Below the pieces are notes generated by a model. It made no database searches. It was not told the origin of the DNA and saw only the letters and a program-made list of their open reading frames with translations. From NCBI GenBank assembly GCA_027622595.1, contig JAQBZZ010000001.1:8181-72180 (forward strand): DNA of 64,000 nt. Reading direction: 5' to 3'. Below are positions 1,238-31,570 of this stretch, in pieces (the first letter of the stretch is position 1; the number at the start of each line of letters is the position of its first letter). This DNA is from Chloroflexota bacterium. Its GTDB lineage: Bacteria > Chloroflexota > Dehalococcoidia > Lucifugimonadales > UBA2985. A program made the position numbers and the translations under genes.

Positions 1238-2764
1238 CTAGCGGGCGAACTCCACCGACCGGGTCTCACGGATTACCGTGACCTTGATCAGGCCAGGGTA
1301 TACCAGAGTCTCCTCAATCTTCTTTACCACGTCCCTTGCCAGCTTGGAGGACGTCACATCGTCAACCTGATCGGACTTGACCAGAATACGCACCTCCCGG
1401 CCGGCCTGAATGGCGTAGCACTTGTCCACACCGGGGAAGCTCAGCGCCACCTCTTCCAGTGCCTCCAGTCGCTTGGCGTAGTGCTCCAAGCTGTCTCTGC
1501 GAGACCCTGGGCGGGCAGCACTGATGGCGTCCGCGGCAGCCACTATGAAAGCCTCCACCGACCCGCGTTCCTCGTCGTGGTGCTCCATGATGGCCCGCTC
1601 TATCTCAGGCGCTATTCCATACCTGCGGGCCACCTCAGCGCCGATCTCTGCATGGGTCCCCTCCACCTCATGGGTCAGGGCTTTGCCGATGTCGTGCAGC
1701 AACCCTCCGACCTTGGCCACCTCTACGTTTGCGCCTATCTCCGCGGCAATCATGCCAGACAGGATGGATACCTGCACGCTGTGCTGAAGGATATTCTCCC
1801 CGTAGCTGTAGCGGTACTTCAGCCGGCCAAACAGCCGGACCAGCTCCGGGTTCAGGCCTCGCACCTTTGCATCGAAAACGGCCTTCTCGCCCTCCTCCCG
1901 GATGTTCTCCTCGACCTCCAGGCGGGTCTTCTCCACCACCTCTTCTATCCGGGCCGGGTGCACCCTGCCGTCTGAAATGAGCTTGGTGATAGCCAGTCGT
2001 GCCACCTCCCGCCGCACAGGGTCAAAGCAGGAAATGGTAACGGCCTCAGGGGTATCATCTATGATGAGGTCGACCCCCGTCGCGGCCTCGATCGCGCGAA
2101 TGTTCCGTCCCTCGCGCCCTATGAGACGACCCTTCATCTCATCGTTGGGAAGTGGGATTACCTTAACCGTGTGCTCAGAGACTACGTCGGAAGCTAAACG
2201 ATGGATGGACAGAGTCAGCACCTTGCGGGCATTCTGGTCCGCGTCTTCCCTGGCAAGCTGCTCAACATCCCTATAGCGGCGGGCCACCTCGTACTGAATC
2301 TCGTCTTCGGCCTTCTTCATGAGAATGTCCTTGGCGTCGTTGACAGAGAGGGCCGAGAGGTCCTCAAGGACCGCCAACTCCTGGCTTTTCATCGCCTCAA
2401 GCTGAGCGTGCCCTTCCTCCAACGCCTTCTCCCTGATTGCCTGGCTCTTTTCCCTTGTGTCCAGGTTATCCGAGCGCCGTTCTATGTTCTCCTCACGATT
2501 GGCCAACCTCCGCTCCTGGCTCTGCAACTCCGAGCGCCGTTCCCTCAGGTCCGCCTCCGCCGAGGTGCGCATACTCAACGCCTCTTCCTTGGCCTCCAAG
2601 AGAGCCCTCTTCCGCTGTTCCTCAGCCTCCGCCACTATGCGAGAGGCTTCCTCTCCCGCATTCTTCACCCGTTTACCAAATATGCTAGCTCTGAAAAAGA
2701 ACCCGGTTGCTCCCCCTATTCCTAGGGCGACCAGGACGGCGAGGACAATTATCAATGCATCCAC
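1238..2764 (-). CDS. rny: Ribonuclease Y
   Basis: 508 aa with an N-terminal TM helix, a coiled-coil, a KH domain ([12 protein letters not shown]) and an HD domain (LLHDIGKA). GTG start with AAGGAGGG upstream. Confidence 0.95.
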
Positions 2765-2926
2765 TGTCCTTCACCCTCCTTTCTATCCAGGCTAATCAGC
2801 CCGGAAAATCCGTGCCCTCTCTTGCATCAAGGGCATCGTTTGATGTTAATGCCAGACACGAGGAGTGTCAAGGACGACCAGGCCTTTACGCGGCCCTTCC
2901 AGCACCCGCTTTCAGCATCCACACCA

Positions 2927-3117
2927 CTCATGGTGAGCTTATCGAAGGGCGTGAGCAGAAAATAAACTTGTCATTCTGAACGCAGTGAAGAATCTAAGAC
3001 ATTTGCCGCATACAACATACGCTTCAGATGCTTCGCCGAGTTTATCATGAGCGGAGCCGAAGGTCTCAGCATGACATCCCACTCTCCGCTCATGGTGAGC
3101 CTGCCGAAGCGCGTGAG
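2927..3117. repeat. Copy (a) of the dispersed modular intergenic repeat family
   Basis: Contains GTCATTCTGAACGCAGTGAAGAATCTAAGAC...GCCGCATACAACATAC...CTCATGGTGAGCCTGCCGAA. The first 51 nt from 2970 match the copy at 5610 in 48 of 51 positions (hand count). Confidence 0.8.
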
Positions 3118-3124
3118 ATGGCCC

Positions 3125-3484
3125 TTAAGTCTCGTTCTCCCCCACAAAACATTCGGAGCAGCGGCACAGCTTTCTCAGCAGGTCAAATGGGTAGATACCG
3201 GAATCGTGGGTATCGCTCCACAGAAACTGCACGGCGTACCGCCCTATCTGCATCCAGTCTATTGCCTGAACATCCTCCCTCACATCCTCCTCCGCCACCC
3301 TACGCCGACCCGTCATCTCCTCAACGCACCCGGCGCAGCAGCAATGGCCTCTCAGATACCTGTGGGGATAATAGCCGGAATGTCCATCGTCCCACAGAAT
3401 GTGGACTCCATCATCCTCTAGATTCACCTCATTAACTGCCAATACTTTTCCCCCTTTTTGTAATCCCCCCACCCCACTCAACAC
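3125..3484 (-). CDS. DUF971 family protein (gamma-butyrobetaine hydroxylase-like N-terminal domain)
   Basis: 119 aa. The pattern HILWDDGHSGYYPHRYLRGHCCCAGC...YAVQFLWSDTHDSGIYPFDLLR is typical of DUF971. GTG start. Confidence 0.7.
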   Translation of the reverse strand: MLSGVGGLQKGGKVLAVNEVNLEDDGVHILWDDGHSGYYPHRYLRGHCCCAGCVEEMTGRRRVAEEDVREDVQAIDWMQIGRYAVQFLWSDTHDSGIYPFDLLRKLCRCSECFVGENET

Positions 3485-3608
3485 TAATCGCCAGCTGATG
3501 ATGAGACCCTCGGCTCCGCTCAGGACATGCTTGTCAAATGACTAGCGGGGAAAATCCCACTTGCCAGACCAGAATAGCAGCTTATTATGGGTGCAGGGCG
3601 TGCCCTGG

Positions 3609-3953
3609 CTACCCCATGACACTCAGGCGACCGCCCCCCAACACATGCAGGTGTAAATGAGGGACCTCCTGCCCTGAGTCCGACCCCTGGTTGATCACCA
3701 GCCGGTATCCCGATTCCGCCAGACCCTCGCGCTGGGCCATCTCCCTTGCCACAAGAACCATATGCCCCAGCAAAGCCTCCCTGTCTTGGTTAAAAGACGT
3801 GAGGTACGTCACATGCTCAGAGGGAATCACCAGGAGATGGGTGGGTGCCTTGGGGTTGATGTCCCGTATCACAAAGGCCAGGTCGTCGCTGTACAGAAGC
3901 TCGCCGGGTATCTCCCCCAGTCCGATTTTGCAAAAGACGCAGTCCTCAGCCAT
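3609..3953 (-). CDS. HIT family (histidine triad) nucleotide hydrolase
   Basis: CVFCKI start and the HLHLHVLGG histidine triad. I set the start to ATG 3953 (MAEDCVFCKI). The longer track start at 3986 lies inside a repeat element. Confidence 0.85.
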   Translation of the reverse strand: MAEDCVFCKIGLGEIPGELLYSDDLAFVIRDINPKAPTHLLVIPSEHVTYLTSFNQDREALLGHMVLVAREMAQREGLAESGYRLVINQGSDSGQEVPHLHLHVLGGGRLSVMG

Positions 3954-3980
3954 ATCTTGTGTGTGCCCTTCCTGCCCACC

Positions 3981-4036
3981 GCGCATGGTGAACCCGTCAA
4001 AGCATCGTCGTTACGAGCGAGTCCCCGAGCGCAGCA
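3981..4036. repeat. Copy (b) of the modular repeat family (short)
   Basis: GCATCGTCGTTACGAGCGAGTCCCCGAGCGCAGC closely matches the spacer GCATCGTCGTTGCGAGCGAGTTCCCGAGCAGC at 5766-5797. Confidence 0.6.
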
Positions 4037-4061
4037 ACCTAGTGGGGTGGCTGAGCCTCTA

Positions 4062-4298
4062 CTACACGCTCATCGACAGATAGGTCGTCGTCCGCTGTAT
4101 CCCGCTGATGGTGTGGATGCCCCCCGTCACCAACTCCCCGATGCTGTTCAGGTTTTCCGCCTCAATCACAGCCACAATGTCGTACTCCCCAGTCACAGCG
4201 TCGGCTTCCTTGACCCCTTCCATCTGTTGAAGGACCCTGAGCACATCCTTGGTCTTACCAACCGCCGTCTCGATTAACACATAAGCCTTTGTCGCCAC
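4062..4298 (-). CDS. Stand-alone Lrp/AsnC-type ligand-binding (RAM) domain protein
   Basis: 78 aa. AYVLIETAVGKTKDVLRVLQQMEGVKEADAVTGEYDIVAVIEAENLNSIGELV matches the AsnC_trans_reg domain pattern. No HTH domain is present. Confidence 0.7.
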   Translation of the reverse strand: MATKAYVLIETAVGKTKDVLRVLQQMEGVKEADAVTGEYDIVAVIEAENLNSIGELVTGGIHTISGIQRTTTYLSMSV

Positions 4299-5614: not shown

Positions 5615-5895
5615 TCTGAACGCAATGAAGAATCTAAGACCTGTGCCGCATACAACATACCTCCCGGTGCTTCGCGGAGTTTATCCTGAGCGTAGTCGAA
5701 GGGCGCAGCATGACAACCTTCCGCTCATGGTGAGCCTGTCGAACCATCATCCTGAGCCTGTCGGAGCATCGTCGTTGCGAGCGAGTTCCCGAGCAGCCTG
5801 TCCTGAGCGTAGTCGAAGGGCTCAGCATGCCAACCTTCCGCTCATGGTGAGCCTGTCGAACCATCATCCTGAGCTTGTCGAAGGACAGGAGCGGA
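5610..5895. repeat. Copy (c) of the modular repeat family, a composite with an internal 74-bp direct repeat
   Basis: It starts like the copy at 2970. It then carries two 74-bp units (5684-5757 and 5801-5874) identical in 72 of 74 positions, with a period of 117 bp. Confidence 0.85.
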
Positions 5896-5921
5896 GTGGT
5901 ATTGTGAGTATCCTCTAATAC

Positions 5922-6590
5922 CTACACCGACGCCAGCCGTTCCTTCAATAAACGAATCGCGGCCTCTATCCCATCGGGGTGATCGAAGACCGCTGAGCCT
6001 GCCACCACCACCTGTGCGCCTGCCCTGGCGACCATCGGCGCGGTCTCGGCGTTTATGCCTCCGTCCACCTCAAGCTCCGCCTGGATTCCTATTTCGTCCA
6101 TGAATCGACGCACACGGGCGATCTTCTGCGGGCTTTCCGGGATGAATTTCTGCCCGGGAAGTCCCGGGTTCACCGTCATCACAAGCACCTGGTCCAGCCA
6201 TTGGAGAGTCTCTTCTATGGCCATCAACGACGTGCCGGGGTTTATGGCCACACTGGCCTTGGCCCCGTGCTCCTTTATCTGGGCGATGGTCCAGTGAAGC
6301 TGGGTGCACGCCTCTGCATGGACTGTGATGATGTCCGCGCCCGCGTCCAGGAAGGAGGCGATATGACGCTCTGGCTGCTCAACCATCATGTGCACGTCCA
6401 AAGGCAGATGAGTCCACTTCTTGATGGCTTCCACGGTACGGGGCCCCCATGTGAGGGCGGGCACAAAGTGGCCGTCCATGATGTCAACGTGGATGAGGTC
6501 GGCGCCGGCCCTGGTTATCTCCGCAACATGTTCCCCAAGGCGCGCGAAGTCCGCCGACAGTATCGATGGTGCCAGCTTGATGGTGCTCAT
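5922..6590 (-). CDS. rpe: Ribulose-phosphate 3-epimerase
   Basis: MSTIKLAPSILSADFARLGEH...DIMDGHFVP...HMMV...VNPGLPGQKF...VDGGIN. I set the start to ATG 6590, which forms an ATGA overlap with the upstream gene's stop. The track's 267-aa version adds a non-homologous Arg/Pro-rich N-terminus. Confidence 0.92.
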   Translation of the reverse strand: MSTIKLAPSILSADFARLGEHVAEITRAGADLIHVDIMDGHFVPALTWGPRTVEAIKKWTHLPLDVHMMVEQPERHIASFLDAGADIITVHAEACTQLHWTIAQIKEHGAKASVAINPGTSLMAIEETLQWLDQVLVMTVNPGLPGQKFIPESPQKIARVRRFMDEIGIQAELEVDGGINAETAPMVARAGAQVVVAGSAVFDHPDGIEAAIRLLKERLASV

Positions 6591-7594
6591 TCCTGCCCCC
6601 ATGCCTTGGGGTCGAGGGCATGAAGTAGGCGTTCGAAAGCGGCCTTGTATTTTGCCTCGTCCTGCCAGTCTGAGAAGTCGAGGACGTGGGTCGCCAGCAC
6701 ATCTGCTTTCTGCTCGTGCTGCCACTCATTCAGGACGTAGTCATCCAAGCGAATGGGGACAAGCACGTTTTCATTCAGCAAATCTGGCGTCTGTCCGCGC
6801 GTCTCAGCCTGCTTCTTACGCCGTACGTTTGTGGCTTTCAGGAATGCTTCCTTCTGGAGCGCCCGCTCAATCTCTCTCGGCACACCGTCTCTTTCCAGAG
6901 AGTTTTGTGAACATATAGTCAACATCTTGTCGTCGTCCTTAATAGGGCGGCCAATCTTAGCCCACACCTTTCTGCCTGTCACCATGTCCTGATCGTATAT
7001 CCAGCAGGGCATGCCGGTGGCCTCCAAGTCCTTGTGCAGGCGTGCGGCGAACTCTTCATCTATGGAGGAATAGCTCATGAAGCAGCGGTAGTATTTGTTC
7101 TCACCATTTGGCCTTGGCACCAGTGAGTCCAGAATACTCTTGGGGACTGCGGCGGCGATCAGGAAGACCTTTGGGATATCTCCCTTCGAGTTGATTATGG
7201 TATCGATATCGATGTTGCTCGGGCTTTTATGCACCACCGACGTCTGGCCCTGGCACTGGTCGAGGTTGCAGTTGATGAGGGTTGTTGACCCGCATACTGC
7301 TCCGGTGAAGTTGGCGCCATAGAGGTTGGCACCGGACAGATCAGCCTTGGACAGGTTGGCCTCGGCGAGGTTGGTTGCCAGGAGGTTGGCGCCGGATAGG
7401 TCTGCCTCGTAGAGGTTGGCACCGGACAGATCGGCGTTGGAGAGGTCTGCCCCTGCAAGGTTGGTTGCCAGGAGGTTGGTGTTGAGCAGGTTGGCTCCAG
7501 AGAGGTCGAGGCGTTCGCCTGGGGGCAGGCCACGCCACTGGGCTATGGCTTTCCTGCCCTCTCTTAACAGTCGGACATGTTCTGGATTTGCCAT
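6587..7594 (-). CDS. Pentapeptide-repeat protein fused to a C-terminal TIR domain
   Basis: 335 aa. The N-terminal third is a run of A(D/N)LxX units (ANLLNTNLLATNLAGADLSNADLSGANLYEADLSGANL...). The C-terminal part, YRCFMSYSSIDEEFAARLHKDLEATGMPCWIYDQDMVTGRKVW...MLTICSQNSLERDGVPREIERAL, follows the TIR_2 pattern. Confidence 0.75.
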   Translation of the reverse strand: MANPEHVRLLREGRKAIAQWRGLPPGERLDLSGANLLNTNLLATNLAGADLSNADLSGANLYEADLSGANLLATNLAEANLSKADLSGANLYGANFTGAVCGSTTLINCNLDQCQGQTSVVHKSPSNIDIDTIINSKGDIPKVFLIAAAVPKSILDSLVPRPNGENKYYRCFMSYSSIDEEFAARLHKDLEATGMPCWIYDQDMVTGRKVWAKIGRPIKDDDKMLTICSQNSLERDGVPREIERALQKEAFLKATNVRRKKQAETRGQTPDLLNENVLVPIRLDDYVLNEWQHEQKADVLATHVLDFSDWQDEAKYKAAFERLLHALDPKAWGQE

Positions 7595-7649
7595 TGCTCT
7601 CTTCCTACGCCACTCGTCTAGTGTCCTGAGTCACAAAAAGGGCGCAAAT

Positions 7650-7745
7650 GTCATTGCAAGGAGGCGACAGCCGACGAAGCAATCTGGAGGTGGGCACCCC
7701 GCAGCCAGATTGCCACGGCCCTCCTTCGTCGGGCCTCGCAATGAC
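7650..7745. repeat. Palindromic repeat element (d), a GTCATTGC...GCAATGAC variant
   Basis: GTCATTGCAAGGAGGCGACAGCCGACGAAGCAATCTGG...CCAGATTGCC...CCTCGCAATGAC. The termini are inverted repeats and the arms are partly complementary. It lies between the argH stop and the TIR gene start. Confidence 0.75.
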
Positions 7746-7783
7746 AGAGGCACCCCCTTTTCAACAAATCTCTGTTCACCACA

Positions 7784-9139
7784 CTAGCCACCAAACTCCC
7801 ACTCCAGCAGGCGATGTGCCTCTTTCATCGCCTCCTCAACCCGCCGCGGGCTGGTGCCTCCCGGCACGTCGCGGCTGGCGATGGAGGACTCCACGCTGAT
7901 GGCATATATATCCTCATCAAAGCGAGGCGAGAGTTTTTTGTAATCTTCCAGACTCAACTCCGCCAGACCCTTACCCTGGGAAGCGGCATGACGTACCAAC
8001 TCAGCGACGATGCCATGTGCGCTGCGGAAGGACTCGCCCTTGCTCACAAGGTAATCGGCAAGGTCGGTTGCCAAAATGTTGCTGTCCCGGGCGGCCTCAC
8101 GGGCGCGCTCGACGTTGACCGTCAGGGTGCTCATCATGCCTGCAAACACCTCCAGGGTGCTCAGAAGAGTATCCACAGTGTCGAAGAAACCCTCTTTGTC
8201 TTCCTGTAGGTCCCGGTTGTAGGTGAGGGGCAGGCCCTTGAGCAGTGTGAGGATGCCGACCAGGTGGCCGTATACCCGGCCTGTCTTGCCGCGGGCCAGC
8301 TCGGCGAAGTCCGGGTTGCGCTTCTGGGGCATTATGCTGCTGCCGGTGGTGTATGAGTCGTCCAGTCGGATGAAGCCGAACTCCTGCGACGACCACAGCA
8401 CCGTCTCATCTGCCAGACGTGAGAGGTGCATCATGCAGACGGCCGCCGCGGCGTGATACTCCACCAGGAAGTCCCTGTCGGCGACGGCGTCCATGCTGTT
8501 CTTGCTTATCCCGCCGAACCCCAGTTCTCGGGCGACGAACTCGCGGTCTATGGGGTAGGGAACACCCGCCAGAGCGCCGCTGCCAAGGGGAAGGACATTG
8601 ACTCGATGCAGGCAGTCCTGGAACCGCTCCCGGTCTCGCTGAAGCATGTGGAAGTAGGCCAGCAGATGATGGGAGAGAAGGACGGGTTGGGCCCTTTGCA
8701 GATGGGTGTAGCCAGGGATGACCACTCCTGGATTAACCTCGGCGGTGGCGAGGAGGGCTGACTGGAGTGCCTTGATGTTTTTCTGGGTGTCCCCTATGGC
8801 CTCCTTGCAGTAGAGCCGCATATCGGTGGCTACCTGGTCGTTGCGGGAACGGCCCGTGTGGAGCTTCCCGGCCACATCTCCTATCTTCTCGAAGAGACGG
8901 GCCTCGATGTTCATATGGAGGTCTTCCAACTCGTCTTTCCAGGGAAAGGAGCCATCTTCTATCTCCTGTCGGATGCTGCTCAGGCCCATGCCAATGCTCT
9001 CGGCTTCCCTGTCCGTAATGATGCCCTGTTTCGCCAGCATACGGACATGTGCTATCGACCCGGCCACGTCCTGTCTGTACAGGCGTCGGTCATAGTGTAT
9101 GGAGGCGGTGTATTTTGTAATCTTCTTTTCCTGGGACAT
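7784..9139 (-). CDS. argH: Argininosuccinate lyase
   Basis: 451 aa. TGRSRNDQV, GYTHLQRAQP and GSSIMPQKRNPD are fumarate-lyase/ASL signatures. Confidence 0.95.
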   Translation of the reverse strand: MSQEKKITKYTASIHYDRRLYRQDVAGSIAHVRMLAKQGIITDREAESIGMGLSSIRQEIEDGSFPWKDELEDLHMNIEARLFEKIGDVAGKLHTGRSRNDQVATDMRLYCKEAIGDTQKNIKALQSALLATAEVNPGVVIPGYTHLQRAQPVLLSHHLLAYFHMLQRDRERFQDCLHRVNVLPLGSGALAGVPYPIDREFVARELGFGGISKNSMDAVADRDFLVEYHAAAAVCMMHLSRLADETVLWSSQEFGFIRLDDSYTTGSSIMPQKRNPDFAELARGKTGRVYGHLVGILTLLKGLPLTYNRDLQEDKEGFFDTVDTLLSTLEVFAGMMSTLTVNVERAREAARDSNILATDLADYLVSKGESFRSAHGIVAELVRHAASQGKGLAELSLEDYKKLSPRFDEDIYAISVESSIASRDVPGGTSPRRVEEAMKEAHRLLEWEFGG

Positions 9140-10420: not shown

Positions 10421-11611
10421 TTAGCCAGAAATTAGCTTGATCAACGCCGCTTCCAGTCGCTCCAGTGCCGTATCCACTTCCTGTGTGCTCACGTTCAAGG
10501 GAGGCATGAAGCGGATGGCATTTGGCCGCACGGGGTTGAGGAGCAGTCCCTCTTCATTGCAGAGGGACACCACCTGTCCCGAGATGTCGCTGCTGAACTG
10601 TAGTGCAATGAGAAGTCCCATGCCGCGGACATCGGTGATGATCTCGTAGAGGGACGCAAGAGCGTTTAAGCCATTTCTGAGATGCTGGCCTACGGTTTCG
10701 GCATAGGTTGGAATGTCATTTTCTATCACGTAGTTCACCACCGCGAAGGATGCTGCGCACGTCAGGGCGTTGCCCCCGTATGTGGAGCCGTGGTCTCCGG
10801 GAGCCAGCAGGCAGAACTTCTCCTTGGCCATAAACGCGCCTATGGGGACGCCCCCGCCGAGGCCCTTGGCCAGGGTAATGGCGTCCGGTTCCACCCCAAA
10901 ACGCTGGTAGCCGAACAGGCTGCCAAGCCGACCTATGCCGGTCTGTACCTCATCAAGCACCATCACCAGGCCCTGCTCGTCGCACCACTCCCGCACCTGC
11001 TTCAAGTAGCCTTGAGCGGGAACGTTGACACCACCTTCACCCTGCACTGGCTCCAGCATGACGGCGCAGGTGTTGCTGTTGGTGGCCGCTTTGATGGCCT
11101 CTATGTCATCGTACGGCACATTCACGAAGCCGGGGGCGAGGGGCTTCCACTGCTCCTGATAGTGCGGCTGGCCCGTGGCCGCCGCCATGGTGAGGGTGCG
11201 TCCATGAAAGGAGTTCAACGCCGTGATGATTTCGTAGGCCCCGTTCCGGTGTGTCTTGCCGTACTTGCGGGCCAGCTTGACAACCCCCTCGTTGGCCTCC
11301 GCCCCGCTGTTGCTGAAGAACACCCTATCGAGGCAGCTGTTCTCAACGAGAATCTGGGCAAGCTTGACCTGAGGTATTGTGTAGAACTGGTTGGAGGTCT
11401 GCATCAACGTGCGGGCCTGCTCCTCCACCGCGCGCACAAGGACGGGATGGCAATGTCCAAGGGTGTTGACTGCCCACCCGGCGGTGAAGTCCAAATACTC
11501 CTTGTCATTCTCGTCCCAGACTAGCGTGCCCTCTCCACGCACTATTACGATGGGCTGACGCCGGGCCACCTGCATGTAGTATTTATTTTCCAGATCTGTC
11601 CAGTTGCTCAT
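10421..11611 (-). CDS. argD: Acetylornithine aminotransferase (class III PLP)
   Basis: 396 aa with FSNSGAEANE, DEVQTGIGRLG and TLAKGLGGG (PLP lysine). Its ATG overlaps the UPF0182 stop (ATGA at 11608-11611). Confidence 0.9.
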   Translation of the reverse strand: MSNWTDLENKYYMQVARRQPIVIVRGEGTLVWDENDKEYLDFTAGWAVNTLGHCHPVLVRAVEEQARTLMQTSNQFYTIPQVKLAQILVENSCLDRVFFSNSGAEANEGVVKLARKYGKTHRNGAYEIITALNSFHGRTLTMAAATGQPHYQEQWKPLAPGFVNVPYDDIEAIKAATNSNTCAVMLEPVQGEGGVNVPAQGYLKQVREWCDEQGLVMVLDEVQTGIGRLGSLFGYQRFGVEPDAITLAKGLGGGVPIGAFMAKEKFCLLAPGDHGSTYGGNALTCAASFAVVNYVIENDIPTYAETVGQHLRNGLNALASLYEIITDVRGMGLLIALQFSSDISGQVVSLCNEEGLLLNPVRPNAIRFMPPLNVSTQEVDTALERLEAALIKLISG

Positions 11612-14436
11612 TTTCCTCCTTCGTCAGTGGCTTCAATGGATTTCAGCATATTTTCCAGGGCCTGCTCTAGCTGGTCCACTGTCTGCTGAAGGCCCCCGAT
11701 GGCCTGTTTTACATCTTCGATCTGCTGCTGTGTTACGAGCCCAGTGGGAGGCGTAGTGGCATCCTCACCACCTGAGTCTGCCCGTTTCCCCAACAGAGCG
11801 TTCAGGGCACTCTTGAGATCGTCCCTCATGACAACCCTCTTGGCGTCGGCCACGATGACCTGTTTGAGTTCTGGGAAGGCTATGCTCTCTGACTGAATGT
11901 AAAGGGGCTCCACGTATATCAGGAACCTCTGGCCTTCATGCTCAATTGGCGTAACAAGCAGGTTGCCCCTGATACACCTTGCCCCCCTCTGGCACAGGAG
12001 TGTGAACTCCTTCTTTATGTCGAAGTCCTGGTCGATACGGGCCTCCACCTGCTCAGGGCCGTCCACCTGTGTGCCCCTTGGAAAGAAGAACGCCTTTAGG
12101 CTGCCATACTGGGCGCGGTCGTTGTCCATGCGGGCGGCCAGCCAAGCCACCTGGTTGGGCTTGTTCAGGGGAGTGAAGGGAAGCATGAGGACGAACTCCT
12201 CTTTCTCCTCTCCTGGGAGCTTCATAATGACGTGGTATGGCTGTATGGGCTGCACCGTCTCGAAGAATAGCTCCTGGGGTATGCTCCAGGGGTCTTCTTT
12301 GCGATAGAAGTCGGTGGTGTCTCGCATGTGGTAGAGGAGGTACTTTTCAGCCTGGATTGAGAAGAAGTCCCGTGGGTAGCGAATGTGGGACAGGAGGGCC
12401 TCCGGCATCTCTTCCTGTGGCTTAAAGAGGTGGGGGAACATCTTGGCATAGGTCTGGATTAGAGCGTCTTCTTCGTCAAAGATGTAGAAGTCCACCTCTC
12501 CGGTGTACGCGTCAACTACTGCCTTTACGCTGTTGCGAATGTAGTTGAAATCGTTGTCGTAGGGGTCGGAGTACGGATAGTGGTCTGTGACGGTATACGC
12601 ATCTAGAATCCACCATAGCTTGCCTTCAGCCACCACCATGTACGGGTCCGAGTCAAGTCGTAGAAACGGCGTGATCTGTTTCACCCTGTCCTGGACAAGA
12701 CGCCGATACTGGATTCTGCTCTCAGGGGCTATAGCGCCGCTTATGAGCACGTTTATGTCTGAGAACTCCAAGGCGTAGGCAAGGCGACGTATTATGGAGC
12801 TAAGCTGCACCCCTCCGTTGCCGTCATACACGTAATCCGTGCTCGCAGCTGCGTTTGCATCAATGGCAGGGAAATCAAACTCGGTCTCTCTGGAGTTGAC
12901 TATGACGTAGTTTGCACTGTTCTCTCCGTAGTAGATTTGAGGCACGGTCACCTCTGGGACCTTTCCAACCAGCGACTCTTTCCCTGCCTTTGGCGGAATG
13001 TCTTTGATGAAGAATTCGGGTCTACCTTCGGCGGTGAACTCCGTTGTCGGACTCATGGCCACCCCGAAGCCGTGAGTGTACTGGAGACGGCTATTGACCC
13101 AGGACTGGGACTCTTCTGGCAGGTCCTCCGGGAACAGCTCACGGGCTCCCAGCACAACCTGCCGTATGGTGCCATCGATTTCGTAACGGTCTATGTCCAC
13201 GCCTATAAACCGGTAGTAAGCCCTGAAGAACTGAATCTGGTTGTATATGCTCCTGAGAGGACGGCGGTCCCACAGGCGAACGTTATCAATAGTCCCTGGA
13301 TTGGCGGCCACCGTTTCGGCGGTCAGGGGTGCAAGCTCACCGGCCTGGTCTCCCGTCGCTATCGTAGCCAGATCGTAGTCCTCCTCAACAATGCGGTCAA
13401 GGGCAAAACCCTGCCGTGTGAACTCAAGGTTGCGGGGAATATAGACCCGCTCCTTGTCCAGCTCGTTGGGAGCTACCTGGAAGCGCTGCACAAGCGAGGG
13501 GTAGACGGCCCCCACTATGATGGCCGCCGCTATCCACAATCCAAGGCCGCCCACCACTATTCTTGGAGAGCGGAAATAGGCGTTGGCCAAAAGAAGGAGC
13601 CCTATTGCGCCACATATTGCAATGAGAATATACAGGGCGGGTAGGCGGGCGTTCAGGTCGGTGTAGGCGGCTCCGAAGATAGCACCGCTGAAGGAAAACA
13701 GCAGCTCGTATCTGTCGATCCAGTAGCTCCAGGTGATTAGCAGGAGCAGCAGTCCCAATAGGACTGAGGCATGGCTTATCAGAGGTGCAGTGATGGCCTG
13801 AGCAAGGTTTATGCCTCTCATGCTGATGTTGATTAGGTATATGAAACTCGTGACGAACATGGCTGTAATGATGGTGCCAAGCAACCAGCCCTGCACCAGG
13901 TTCAACATAGGCAGCGTGAACACGTAGAAAGACACGTCCTTGTGAAAGACCGGGTCCTCTGTGTTGAACGGGACATCGCTGATGAACCGAAGTAACGTCT
14001 CCCACTGGCCGCTTATTACGGAACCGAAGATGATGGCCAGCGTGAATATACTTAACCACATACCCCATACAAAGAGGCGGTTCAGCATGTCGTAGATATG
14101 GGGTGCCAGGAGCATTCCCGACTCACCCCTGGAGTTTCGATAGGCGAACACCGCGTTGGGTGTGACGATGGCCGCAAAGGTCAAGGCTCCGGCGAAGAAG
14201 AGCGCCACCCTGGTCGCCAGAATCTTCACGTATACGCCAAGGTAGTCCAGGGCGTCGAACCAGAGCCAGTTGGTATATACCTGTCTCAGTACATTGAGAA
14301 GTATGAGGAGGAGTATCAAGCCAAAAACGATCACACCCCACTTCAGCAGTGGGCCGGGATCAAAAGGTGTGACCGGCCTTTCGCCCTCTCCGTTTGGGAA
14401 TGGCGACCAGTCCGGGTCGCCGCGGAAGCTAAACAT
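11608..14436 (-). CDS. UPF0182 family large membrane protein (unknown function)
   Basis: 942 aa with about 7 N-terminal TM helices and then a large soluble region. YHVIMKLPGEEKEEFVLMLPFTP, GNLLVTPIE and LIYVEPLYIQS are typical of UPF0182. It overlaps argB (8 nt) and argD (4 nt). Confidence 0.85.
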   Translation of the reverse strand: MFSFRGDPDWSPFPNGEGERPVTPFDPGPLLKWGVIVFGLILLLILLNVLRQVYTNWLWFDALDYLGVYVKILATRVALFFAGALTFAAIVTPNAVFAYRNSRGESGMLLAPHIYDMLNRLFVWGMWLSIFTLAIIFGSVISGQWETLLRFISDVPFNTEDPVFHKDVSFYVFTLPMLNLVQGWLLGTIITAMFVTSFIYLINISMRGINLAQAITAPLISHASVLLGLLLLLITWSYWIDRYELLFSFSGAIFGAAYTDLNARLPALYILIAICGAIGLLLLANAYFRSPRIVVGGLGLWIAAAIIVGAVYPSLVQRFQVAPNELDKERVYIPRNLEFTRQGFALDRIVEEDYDLATIATGDQAGELAPLTAETVAANPGTIDNVRLWDRRPLRSIYNQIQFFRAYYRFIGVDIDRYEIDGTIRQVVLGARELFPEDLPEESQSWVNSRLQYTHGFGVAMSPTTEFTAEGRPEFFIKDIPPKAGKESLVGKVPEVTVPQIYYGENSANYVIVNSRETEFDFPAIDANAAASTDYVYDGNGGVQLSSIIRRLAYALEFSDINVLISGAIAPESRIQYRRLVQDRVKQITPFLRLDSDPYMVVAEGKLWWILDAYTVTDHYPYSDPYDNDFNYIRNSVKAVVDAYTGEVDFYIFDEEDALIQTYAKMFPHLFKPQEEMPEALLSHIRYPRDFFSIQAEKYLLYHMRDTTDFYRKEDPWSIPQELFFETVQPIQPYHVIMKLPGEEKEEFVLMLPFTPLNKPNQVAWLAARMDNDRAQYGSLKAFFFPRGTQVDGPEQVEARIDQDFDIKKEFTLLCQRGARCIRGNLLVTPIEHEGQRFLIYVEPLYIQSESIAFPELKQVIVADAKRVVMRDDLKSALNALLGKRADSGGEDATTPPTGLVTQQQIEDVKQAIGGLQQTVDQLEQALENMLKSIEATDEGGK

Positions 14437-30603: not shown

Positions 30604-30742
30604 CCTCGACAGGCTCACCACGAGTGGAGGAAAAGTTCCGCTCGCCAGGCCAGTGCAAAAGCAGCTTATTGTGAGTGCAGAGCCTGTCCTGAGCCTGCCG
30701 AAGGAGCGTGCCCTGCCCGTTCATCCTGAGCTTGTCGAAATC
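30604..30742. repeat. Copy (e) of the modular repeat family
   Basis: CCTCGACAGGCTCACCACGAG is the inverted form of the CTCATGGTGAGCCTGTCGAA module. It also contains GTCCTGAGCCTGCCGAAGGAG and CATCCTGAGCTTGTCGAA modules. Confidence 0.7.
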
Positions 30743-31428: not shown

Positions 31429-31570
31429 AGCTCATGAATCTCATTCCTTAGTTTTCAAGCATGGACCAATTGGGGCTGGCAGTCTCAGGATGGTCTCAAT
31501 GTATGGCACAATATCAAGCAAGCTTGTCGAAGGACGTGAGCGGAGAACGCATGGGTTTCTGTATCAATAG

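Follow-up and report, generated by a model that had tools for sequence, protein, structure and literature searches.

A pentapeptide-repeat and TIR domain fusion protein in the arg-rpe locus of a Chloroflexota bacterium, a possible self-contained NAD+-consuming effector

Immune systems of bacteria, plants and animals share the TIR domain as their executioner and differ in how it is activated. In a 64,000-nt stretch from a Chloroflexota bacterium (assembly GCA_027622595.1, contig JAQBZZ010000001.1, positions 8,181 to 72,180; hereafter the window, numbered from its first letter), a gene encoding pentapeptide repeats followed by a TIR domain lies between argH and rpe, raising the question of what a repeat-fused TIR protein does among housekeeping genes. 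A prior model-made reading of the bare sequence (the original prediction) had proposed a single-gene NADase module for defence or signalling, in which a DNA-mimicking repeat domain serves as sensor and the coupling to rpe is part of the picture. Our analysis showed that the gene encodes one polypeptide in which a capped beta-helix of pentapeptide repeats is connected by a family-specific linker of three helices to a TIR domain. The explanation that we tentatively favour is a self-contained cytoplasmic accessory TIR effector that consumes NAD+, is controlled via its beta-helix module and acts as a conflict or defence gene.

The coding sequence occupies positions 6587-7594 of the minus strand (335 aa plus a TGA stop), as predicted and as found in the list of open reading frames (ORFs), and an identical 335-aa protein is called on ENA contig MEHR18-1 scaffold_441. 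A Shine-Dalgarno-like stretch, AGGAAGAGAG (7597-7606, minus strand), stands 3 nt 5' of the ATG and is kept in the orthologous loci L003 and L009. Ratios of nonsynonymous to synonymous substitution (dN/dS), computed by the NG86 method with dS values that are saturated, came to 0.20 for the whole gene against its closest orthologue. By part, cap and repeats gave 0.31, the linker 0.30 and the TIR domain 0.10, and the four flanking genes had 0.04-0.11 in the same comparison. Given the values of 0.20 overall and 0.10 in the TIR part, 6587-7594 is no chance ORF, and the substitution pattern indicates a functional gene under purifying selection. The difference between 0.10 in the TIR domain and 0.30 in repeats and linker further indicated that constraint falls on the enzyme part and that the putative sensing part changes more quickly. 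Compared with L009, dN was 0.25 for the gene and 0.06-0.08 for its flanks, and the gene evolves 3-4 times as fast as its housekeeping neighbours, with the non-catalytic half fastest. Horizontal replacement at the locus, hinted at by dS above that of the flanks in two comparisons, was set aside, as dS is saturated and the identity ranking tracks the flanks.

An AlphaFold2 (AF2) model of the whole protein, built on 121 homologues with a mean predicted local distance difference test score (pLDDT) of 88.6, resolved two N-terminal helices, a beta-helix, three short helices between residues 130 and 158, and an alpha/beta domain at residues 171-332. The last of these lies within the TIR domain (residues 166-335; 6590-7099, minus strand). 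Pfam TIR_2 (PF13676) matched residues 172-248 with 59.4 bits (cut-off 28; E 6.5e-16) over profile positions 2-78 of 122, and Pfam TIR (PF01582) stayed slightly under its cut-off (19.4 vs 21.3). The TIR_2 match ends at position 78 because a basic insertion of 29 residues (residues 249-277, EAFLKATNVRRKKQAETRGQTPDLLNENV; 6764-6850, minus strand) lengthens helix alphaC, which spans 237-265 in the AF2 model; this insertion is clade-specific, being confined to the Chloroflexota and SAR202 members of alignment A1. Strands at 171-175, 197-201, 223-227 and 278-282 with helices in between give a flavodoxin-like alpha/beta fold. As a Foldseek search with the whole model was dominated by the beta-helix, returning pentapeptide-repeat structures only and saying nothing about the TIR part, residues 112-335 were modelled separately. 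The top matches of this model, at probability 1.00, included SPARTA TIR-APAZ, MyD88, Cat1, SARM1 and AbTir, and BtpA was also found; the best were the SPARTA structures 8oz6, 8fex and 8qlo, with a template modelling (TM) score of about 0.45 on the query. When a C-terminal family profile was run against PDB sequences, it matched AbTir (E 1.7e-10), TIR-STING, Cat1 and TIR-APAZ. The Pfam score and the TIR fold matches thus bear out a TIR domain of the TIR_2 type.

The catalytic-position glutamate, Glu241 (codon 6872-6874, minus strand; motif VPREIERALQKE), is invariant in 121 of 121 homologues, and in the alignments to the family profile it falls on the Glu of AbTir 'WTNYELDG', the catalytic E208, and on the equivalent Glu of TIR-STING. 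Only three positions of the 121-homologue alignment are invariant, namely F144 in the linker, S229 and E241, while V238, W198, D179, K223, D284 and D306 are each conserved in more than 90%. The BB-loop region (residues 202-217; 6944-6991, minus strand) is modelled as a low-pLDDT loop between betaB (197-201) and betaC (223-227), and its Gly207 is conserved in at least 90% of homologues. The original prediction had placed a Glu at the position used by TIR NADases and had let the TIR assignment depend on this residue and on the BB-loop; both are present. The TIR domain therefore has the residues expected of an enzyme, and we infer that it would cleave NAD+. The opposing explanation, a catalytically inactive TIR that serves as an interaction or scaffolding module of the TLR and MyD88 type, with the beta-helix as a second interaction surface, we consider unlikely. 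The TIRs of TLR and MyD88 are among the best sequence and fold matches, they carry the Glu yet are not known to be NADases, and a widely conserved Trp four residues before the Glu has been lost in 96 of the 121 homologues. However, invariance or near-invariance of the Glu, the ICS-motif Ser and the BB-loop Gly across phyla exceeds what a scaffold needs, no conserved interaction partner is encoded nearby, and a sister subgroup within the family retains the canonical SxWVxxE motif.

The non-catalytic half begins with an N-terminal cap (residues 1-28, MANPEHVRLLREGRKAIAQWR...; 7511-7594, minus strand) of two helices, 4-12 and 14-22 (pLDDT about 95), which carries a motif conserved family-wide, MANPEHxxIxxxGxxAxxxW. 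The beta-helix that follows (residues 29-120; 7235-7510, minus strand) comprises about 4 coils: residues 29-113 form 17 pentapeptide units in a perfect, unbroken 5-residue register, Pfam Pentapeptide (PF00805) scores 70.1 bits (cut-off 20.2; E 1e-19), AF2 places one strand every 5 residues with pLDDT 97-98, and solved pentapeptide-repeat proteins were matched by both Foldseek and phmmer (best 3e-29), so that the predicted N-terminal pentapeptide run proved correct. The helical linker (residues 121-165; 7100-7234, minus strand), delimited by conservation, AF2 and profile search, is a family signature with the consensus VxHxGPSxIGIDTIxxSxGxIPxxFLRGAGVP, the invariant or near-invariant residues H122, P125, S126, T132, S136, F144, L145 and P151, and short predicted helices at 130-135, 142-147 and 152-158.

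A rather doubtful proposal is that the capped beta-helix and the linker would form a new module for trigger sensing or self-assembly that binds an invader protein, possibly by imitating DNA, and so brings about TIR oligomerisation and NAD+ depletion. The narrower form of this idea, in which the beta-helix is a DNA-mimic decoy for invader proteins that bind DNA (for example anti-restriction proteins, nucleases, polymerases or topoisomerases) and capture activates the TIR NADase, seems improbable. The repeat domain is acidic, with a net charge of -7 over 92 residues and a family median of -5.3 per 100 aa; the DNA-mimicking MfpA, Qnr and AlbG are among the structural matches; and evolution is faster in the repeats than in the TIR domain, as would be expected of an arms-race surface. 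Nevertheless, the window protein has only 17 units in about 4 coils, the family ranges from 15 to 56 units and from -13 to +3 charges per 100 aa, so that no fixed DNA-like geometry is conserved, and the NCBIfam models for Qnr (22.2 bits vs 240) and MfpA (27.1 vs 360) are far under their cut-offs, with 20-27 bits overall against cut-offs of 240-460. Orthologues that consist of the TIR domain without the beta-helix are also maintained and, to our knowledge, most pentapeptide proteins are not DNA mimics.

Our initial protein search returned 3,499 matches, the best 120 of which all had both domains, and with the linker alone as profile, 4,050 cluster representatives (clustering at 50% identity) were matched, of which 2,572 reached E<=1e-10. 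Among the best 150 linker matches, 45 had at least 120 residues past the linker, and in 44 of these 45 a TIR domain followed; the other one, P0260, fuses repeats and linker to a different C-terminal domain that by eye is like a nucleoside 2-deoxyribosyltransferase. Searching with the linker alone in an index of 5.8 billion proteins gave just fragments of at most 100 aa, which are uninformative on alternative fusions. A locus scan with a 9-sequence alignment, one genome per species, yielded 51 loci in Chloroflexota (Dehalococcoidia, SAR202), many Acidobacteriota, Nitrospirales, Planctomycetota, deltaproteobacteria and one Promethearchaeota (Asgard) metagenome-assembled genome (MAG). Judged by these searches, the fusion architecture is common, with thousands of clusters. 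It is visible in databases and, as far as the searchable literature goes, has been neither analysed nor tested: full-text searches found no paper describing the fusion, sources name such proteins by domain only, and PADLOC gave domain-level TIR matches only, in agreement with the earlier statement that no named system has this architecture. As a separate observation, on a Pyrinomonadaceae chromosome (L047:5605-6474) the same TIR subfamily follows an unrelated N-terminal region of 130 residues, which lacks a Pfam match and stands in place of the pentapeptide module.

Considering that TIR enzymes as a general rule depend on self-association for activity, we propose that the TIR domain of the fusion would cleave NAD+ and be active only on such association, which the beta-helix and linker would control, either by offering a binding surface to a trigger, for which an invader protein is the most plausible candidate, or by serving as an oligomerisation scaffold. 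The activated enzyme would use up NAD+ and halt the cell, in the manner of abortive infection or of a stress response; depletion is likelier than signalling because no receiver such as ThsA is encoded. The position within the arg-rpe transcription unit would provide constitutive expression.

How far does the locus itself speak to function? The gene order in the window is argJ-argB-UPF0182-argD-argG-argH-[TIR gene]-rpe. Upstream lies argH, the last gene of the arg run, which encodes argininosuccinate lyase (7784-9139, minus strand; Pfam Lyase_1 and ASL_C2), and downstream lies rpe, which encodes a 222-aa ribulose-phosphate 3-epimerase (5922-6590, minus strand; Pfam Ribul_P_3_epim); no terminator-like site was seen between argH and rpe. 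On the minus strand the gene ends in ...CAGGAATGAGC, where its TGA stop (6589-6587) overlaps the rpe ATG (6590-6588) as ATGA (6587-6590), and the Shine-Dalgarno-like stretch for rpe consists of the TIR-gene codons before the ATGA (TGG GGG CAG GAA). Both the ATGA overlap and the translational coupling to rpe in the original prediction were thus confirmed. The order argH-[TIR gene]-rpe is shared by orthologues at 94, 63, 60, 58, 50 and 48% identity, whose flanking genes are 60-98% identical, and the gap between argH and the TIR gene is 19 bp in the 94%-identical relative and 189 bp in the window. In contrast, neither argH nor rpe was near the fusion at about 35 full-length loci of other lineages. 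As the linkage is limited to one Chloroflexota clade, it amounts to synteny within that clade.

A scan for close rpe relatives, with rpe 84-88% identical, revealed a series of decay states in the argH-rpe slot. Loci L017, L068, L069 and L071 hold a TIR-only ORF of 178 aa that starts with TTG two codons past the argH stop; in L070 the TIR-only ORF is a frameshifted pseudogene without the REIERAL region; L066 keeps a 3' remnant of 95 aa; and in L067 an in-frame deletion has left argH ('...EAHRLL') running directly into the final 12 codons ('TALDTKPWGPE*') with the ATGA kept. The last codons of the TIR gene are retained in every slot variant, and rpe is intact in relatives without the TIR gene. 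These codons presumably survive because they bear the ribosome-binding stretch and the start of rpe; rpe would thus borrow them as its ribosome-binding site, and retention of the tail while the gene is lost indicates that rpe needs the tail for translation initiation, not the gene product. Two TIR-only lineages showed a mutual dN/dS of 0.19 with the Glu kept, indicating that the TIR domain alone is still selected for.

With the slot empty or decayed in close relatives, the TIR gene is accessory and lacks a functional tie to rpe. We rejected a functional linkage to rpe or argH, found in one clade only, and on comparative grounds the adjacency to rpe is a lineage-specific accident; the weight that had been placed on the rpe context did not hold, as no linkage was seen at the loci of other phyla and the slot is empty or decayed in close relatives in which rpe stayed intact. 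The same evidence bears on a distinctly unlikely alternative, a housekeeping or regulatory enzyme, that is, a TIR NAD+/nucleotide hydrolase or signal generator tuning NAD+/ADP-ribose pools or dormancy in this Chloroflexota lineage and co-expressed with arginine and pentose-phosphate genes. Such a role would suit a gene that forms part of the argJ...argH-gene-rpe run, separated from argH by 19 bp in relatives, joined to rpe by ATGA with no terminator between, conserved in this arrangement in orthologues at 48-94% identity, and absent from phage and viral collections. It is contradicted by the empty or decayed slots in relatives with such similar rpe, by the missing linkage in other phyla and by a dN 3-4 times that of the neighbours, and the paralogue arrays and truncated copies seen elsewhere misfit a core metabolic role.

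In the neighbourhoods of relatives, we clustered four genes on each side at 56 loci and annotated two genes on each side (92 neighbours of 29 loci). No conserved partner gene was found across the 29 non-syntenic loci, and candidates for one were dismissed, as neighbour clusters in at least 3 of the 56 loci were only the syntenic clade or duplicate records of the same contig. In the window, the Pfam-annotated gene list for the 10 kb to each side contained no gene for ThsA, SIR2, pAgo or a cyclase, which upholds the original remark that no such partner is nearby. TIR proteins made up 7 of the 92 neighbours, 4 of which (L032, L037, L060) were tandem fusion copies in arrays of 2-3 paralogues. At L044, in the Promethearchaeota MAG, the genes on either side of the fusion encode an 864-aa TIR-NTPase-LRR protein (1667-4258) and a 137-aa ThsB-like TIR protein (7018-7428). 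Septu PtuA/PtuB, HepT and Cas4 matches occurred among neighbours at single loci each. Together with the toxin-antitoxin and mobile-element surroundings of truncated copies and with the alternative fusion P0260, we count this conflict-type company in favour of the effector explanation. Aside from these counts, the TIR genes of L044 make up a small TIR-rich island in an archaeon.

In Acidobacteriota, about 12 loci (L048, L051, L052, L054-L059, L061, L064 and L065) hold 5'-truncated copies of a P0079-like fusion with breakpoints at residues 192-248, a constant 3' end and 77-93% amino acid identity to P0079, with several per genome; DNA homology ends about 20-40 nt past the stop codon. Some of these copies share conserved upstream blocks encoding VapBC-like pairs, one copy is followed by a transposase, and truncated copies are abutted by VapBC cassettes and insertion sequence (IS) elements. 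In L019, L023 and L027 (about 5900-7000), the full-length gene recurs from genome to genome within a self-contained block of about 1.1 kb with 78-94% nucleotide identity. This block runs from about 100 nt ahead of the start codon to about 20 nt beyond the stop codon, and no nucleotide homology of at least 120 nt was reported outside it; in L023 the final ~140 nt of the gene occur a second time 1.6 kb further on (8580-8717). Visual inspection of the aligned acidobacterial copies revealed no attC-like signature at their 3' end. On the plasmid pSR-5 of Skermanella rosea (L087, 1853-5609), two IS256 transposase genes stand between an ORF with pentapeptide repeats and a TIR ORF, an arrangement that we read as an IS-disrupted copy of the fusion. 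Overall, the gene is gained, duplicated, truncated and lost in an accessory manner. As an observation in its own right, L051:519-4913 contains four or five copies of a hairpin repeat of about 186 nt (CCACGGTCAG...CTGACCGTGG), spaced 1.1-1.8 kb apart with small ORFs between; this array ends beside the truncated TIR fragment and has a cassette-array-like layout, possibly integron-like.

The truncated copies amid toxin-antitoxin cassettes and IS elements also speak for an offensive TIR NADase, either the addiction-module toxin of a mobile element or an inter-bacterial effector, as do the pentapeptide domains of the secreted effectors PipB, PipB2, SopA and NleL, which gave repeat-level matches. 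We nonetheless hold this explanation to be very improbable: the window and the orthologous loci showed no signal peptide, no marker of a secretion system and no neighbouring gene for immunity or an antitoxin, the host lineage is a free-living uncultured Chloroflexota, and the effector matches are limited to generic repeats and lie far under the family cut-offs.

Several observations weigh against the accessory NAD+-consuming effector that we favour. At the active site, the Trp four residues before the catalytic-position Glu is replaced by Gly237 in the window protein; across the 121 homologues this position is Trp in 25 and P, G or A in 93, and the Trp is present in the aligned AbTir and TIR-STING sequences and conserved in SARM1 and plant TIRs as well. 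Purifying selection on the TIR-only orthologues implies that the beta-helix is dispensable and probably not needed to silence the TIR domain. In genomic terms, the chromosomal site is unchanged through deep divergence (argH down to 66% identity) and steadier than is typical of defence genes, the window gene sits among housekeeping genes outside any defence island, and most neighbours of its relatives are metabolic genes. Phage genomes and IMG/VR contigs yielded no relatives, and the sole plasmid match was the one IS-disrupted copy.

Which known systems, then, does the protein resemble? By membership it belongs to the TIR_2 and Pentapeptide Pfam families, and by analogy its closest functional counterparts would be bacterial NADases of the AbTir type, which carry an assembly module at the N-terminus, and TIR effectors joined to repeat sensors. 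With AbTir, TirS and BtpA it shares a single polypeptide with a C-terminal TIR domain, the aligned Glu in alphaC (profile E 1.7e-10) and a non-catalytic N-terminal module that could drive self-association. That module is an oligomerising coiled coil in those proteins, whereas here it is a pentapeptide beta-helix with a family-specific linker, and the Trp at -4 is missing, alphaC bears the 29-residue insertion and there is no link to pathogenesis. TIR-NLR, TIR-TPR, TIR-LRR and TIR-WD40 proteins likewise join an effector TIR to a super-secondary-structure repeat array of variable length, but the present protein has no NTPase switch domain, places its TIR domain C-terminally after the repeats and is much smaller (335 aa). 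Surveys from the Aravind laboratory list pentapeptide repeats among such repeat-sensor modules (PMC7159879, PMC8195603), and these repeats occur in published conflict systems (PMC7159879, PMC8195603, PMC10853773, PMC13586616).

The remaining systems matched in part. SPARTA provided the best structural matches of the TIR model and the best PADLOC matches (Aga_TIR), and shares the logic of a TIR domain that is inactive until a sensor module drives oligomerisation; however, there is no APAZ domain or Argonaute gene here, the Aga_TIR models match only over positions 7-85 of 430-443, their TIR-aligned part, and SPARTA senses a duplex of guide RNA and target DNA, in place of which the repeat beta-helix would be the sensor. 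Thoeris ThsB is likewise a TIR protein with a catalytic Glu, and it has weak similarity to the fusion (ThsB_TIR in PADLOC, E 0.011-0.025; PF08937 in several homologues), but ThsA (SIR2/SLOG or Macro) was found neither within 10 kb nor among the 92 neighbours of the 29 loci, so that a purely signal-generating role would lack a receiver. The CBASS/Pycsar model SAVED_TIR matched only over positions 12-93 of 404, its TIR part, and no cyclase is nearby. The PADLOC candidate PDC-S66 matched only over positions 143-214 of 282 (E 4.9e-4), with relatives covering only about 145-246. The PADLOC scan that had been suggested for this protein therefore gave matches to the TIR part but recovered no full system model. 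Qnr, MfpA and AlbG share the right-handed quadrilateral beta-helix and its acidic surface, but here there are about half the coils, an enzyme domain is fused and the repeat number is not conserved. As the defining features of each are lacking, the protein is not Thoeris, SPARTA, CBASS/Pycsar, PDC-S66 or Qnr/MfpA.

A beta-helix repeat sensor would be an unstudied type of TIR switch. If it does bind an invader protein and turn this binding into TIR oligomerisation and NAD+ depletion, the family would represent an immune system that consists of one gene, is widespread among phyla of soil and sea (Acidobacteriota, Chloroflexota, Nitrospirota, Planctomycetota and Asgard archaea) and has been missed by current defence catalogues. 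Its members fall almost wholly in uncultured environmental phyla that defence screens based on E. coli or Bacillus do not sample. The natural series of full-length proteins, TIR-only forms, the Trp-retaining sister subgroup and arrays of 15-56 repeats offers ready-made constructs and controls, and the idea of a functional tie to the pentose-phosphate pathway is corrected.

The 189-bp spacer between argH and the TIR gene contains an imperfect long palindrome with nested inverted repeats (7635-7760), in line with the palindromic repeat noted earlier upstream of the gene; its predicted RNA fold has -80.9 kcal/mol with z = -2.7. It is a single-copy insertion of about 170 bp that is absent in L003 and L009 and missing from the 94%-identical relative, no further copy exists elsewhere in the window, and it is a lineage-specific insertion, probably of a type like miniature inverted-repeat transposable elements (MITE) or repetitive extragenic palindromes (REP). 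A role as regulatory RNA or terminator was rejected, as there is no Rfam match and no terminator-like site and the palindrome is absent in relatives.

Elsewhere in the arg run, a gene for a small retropepsin-like aspartyl protease (Asp_protease_2) stands between argG and argH in two relatives (L007:5466-5840 and L008:5897-6403), making this gap a second variable slot. A gene for a 942-aa UPF0182 membrane protein lies inside the run (11608-14436, minus strand; argB-UPF0182-argD) and is kept there in L001, L003-L005 and L007-L009 and absent from L010 and L011. Downstream of rpe, window positions 5621-5921 hold a repeated intergenic element with copies at 2981-3108, 3989-4030, 30681-30739 and 31521-31545; it includes two tandem 83-nt copies (5684-5766 and 5801-5883) that are 95% identical and in which a spurious ORF reads '...MMVRQAHHERKV...', and it is probably a REP/MITE-type element of this genome.

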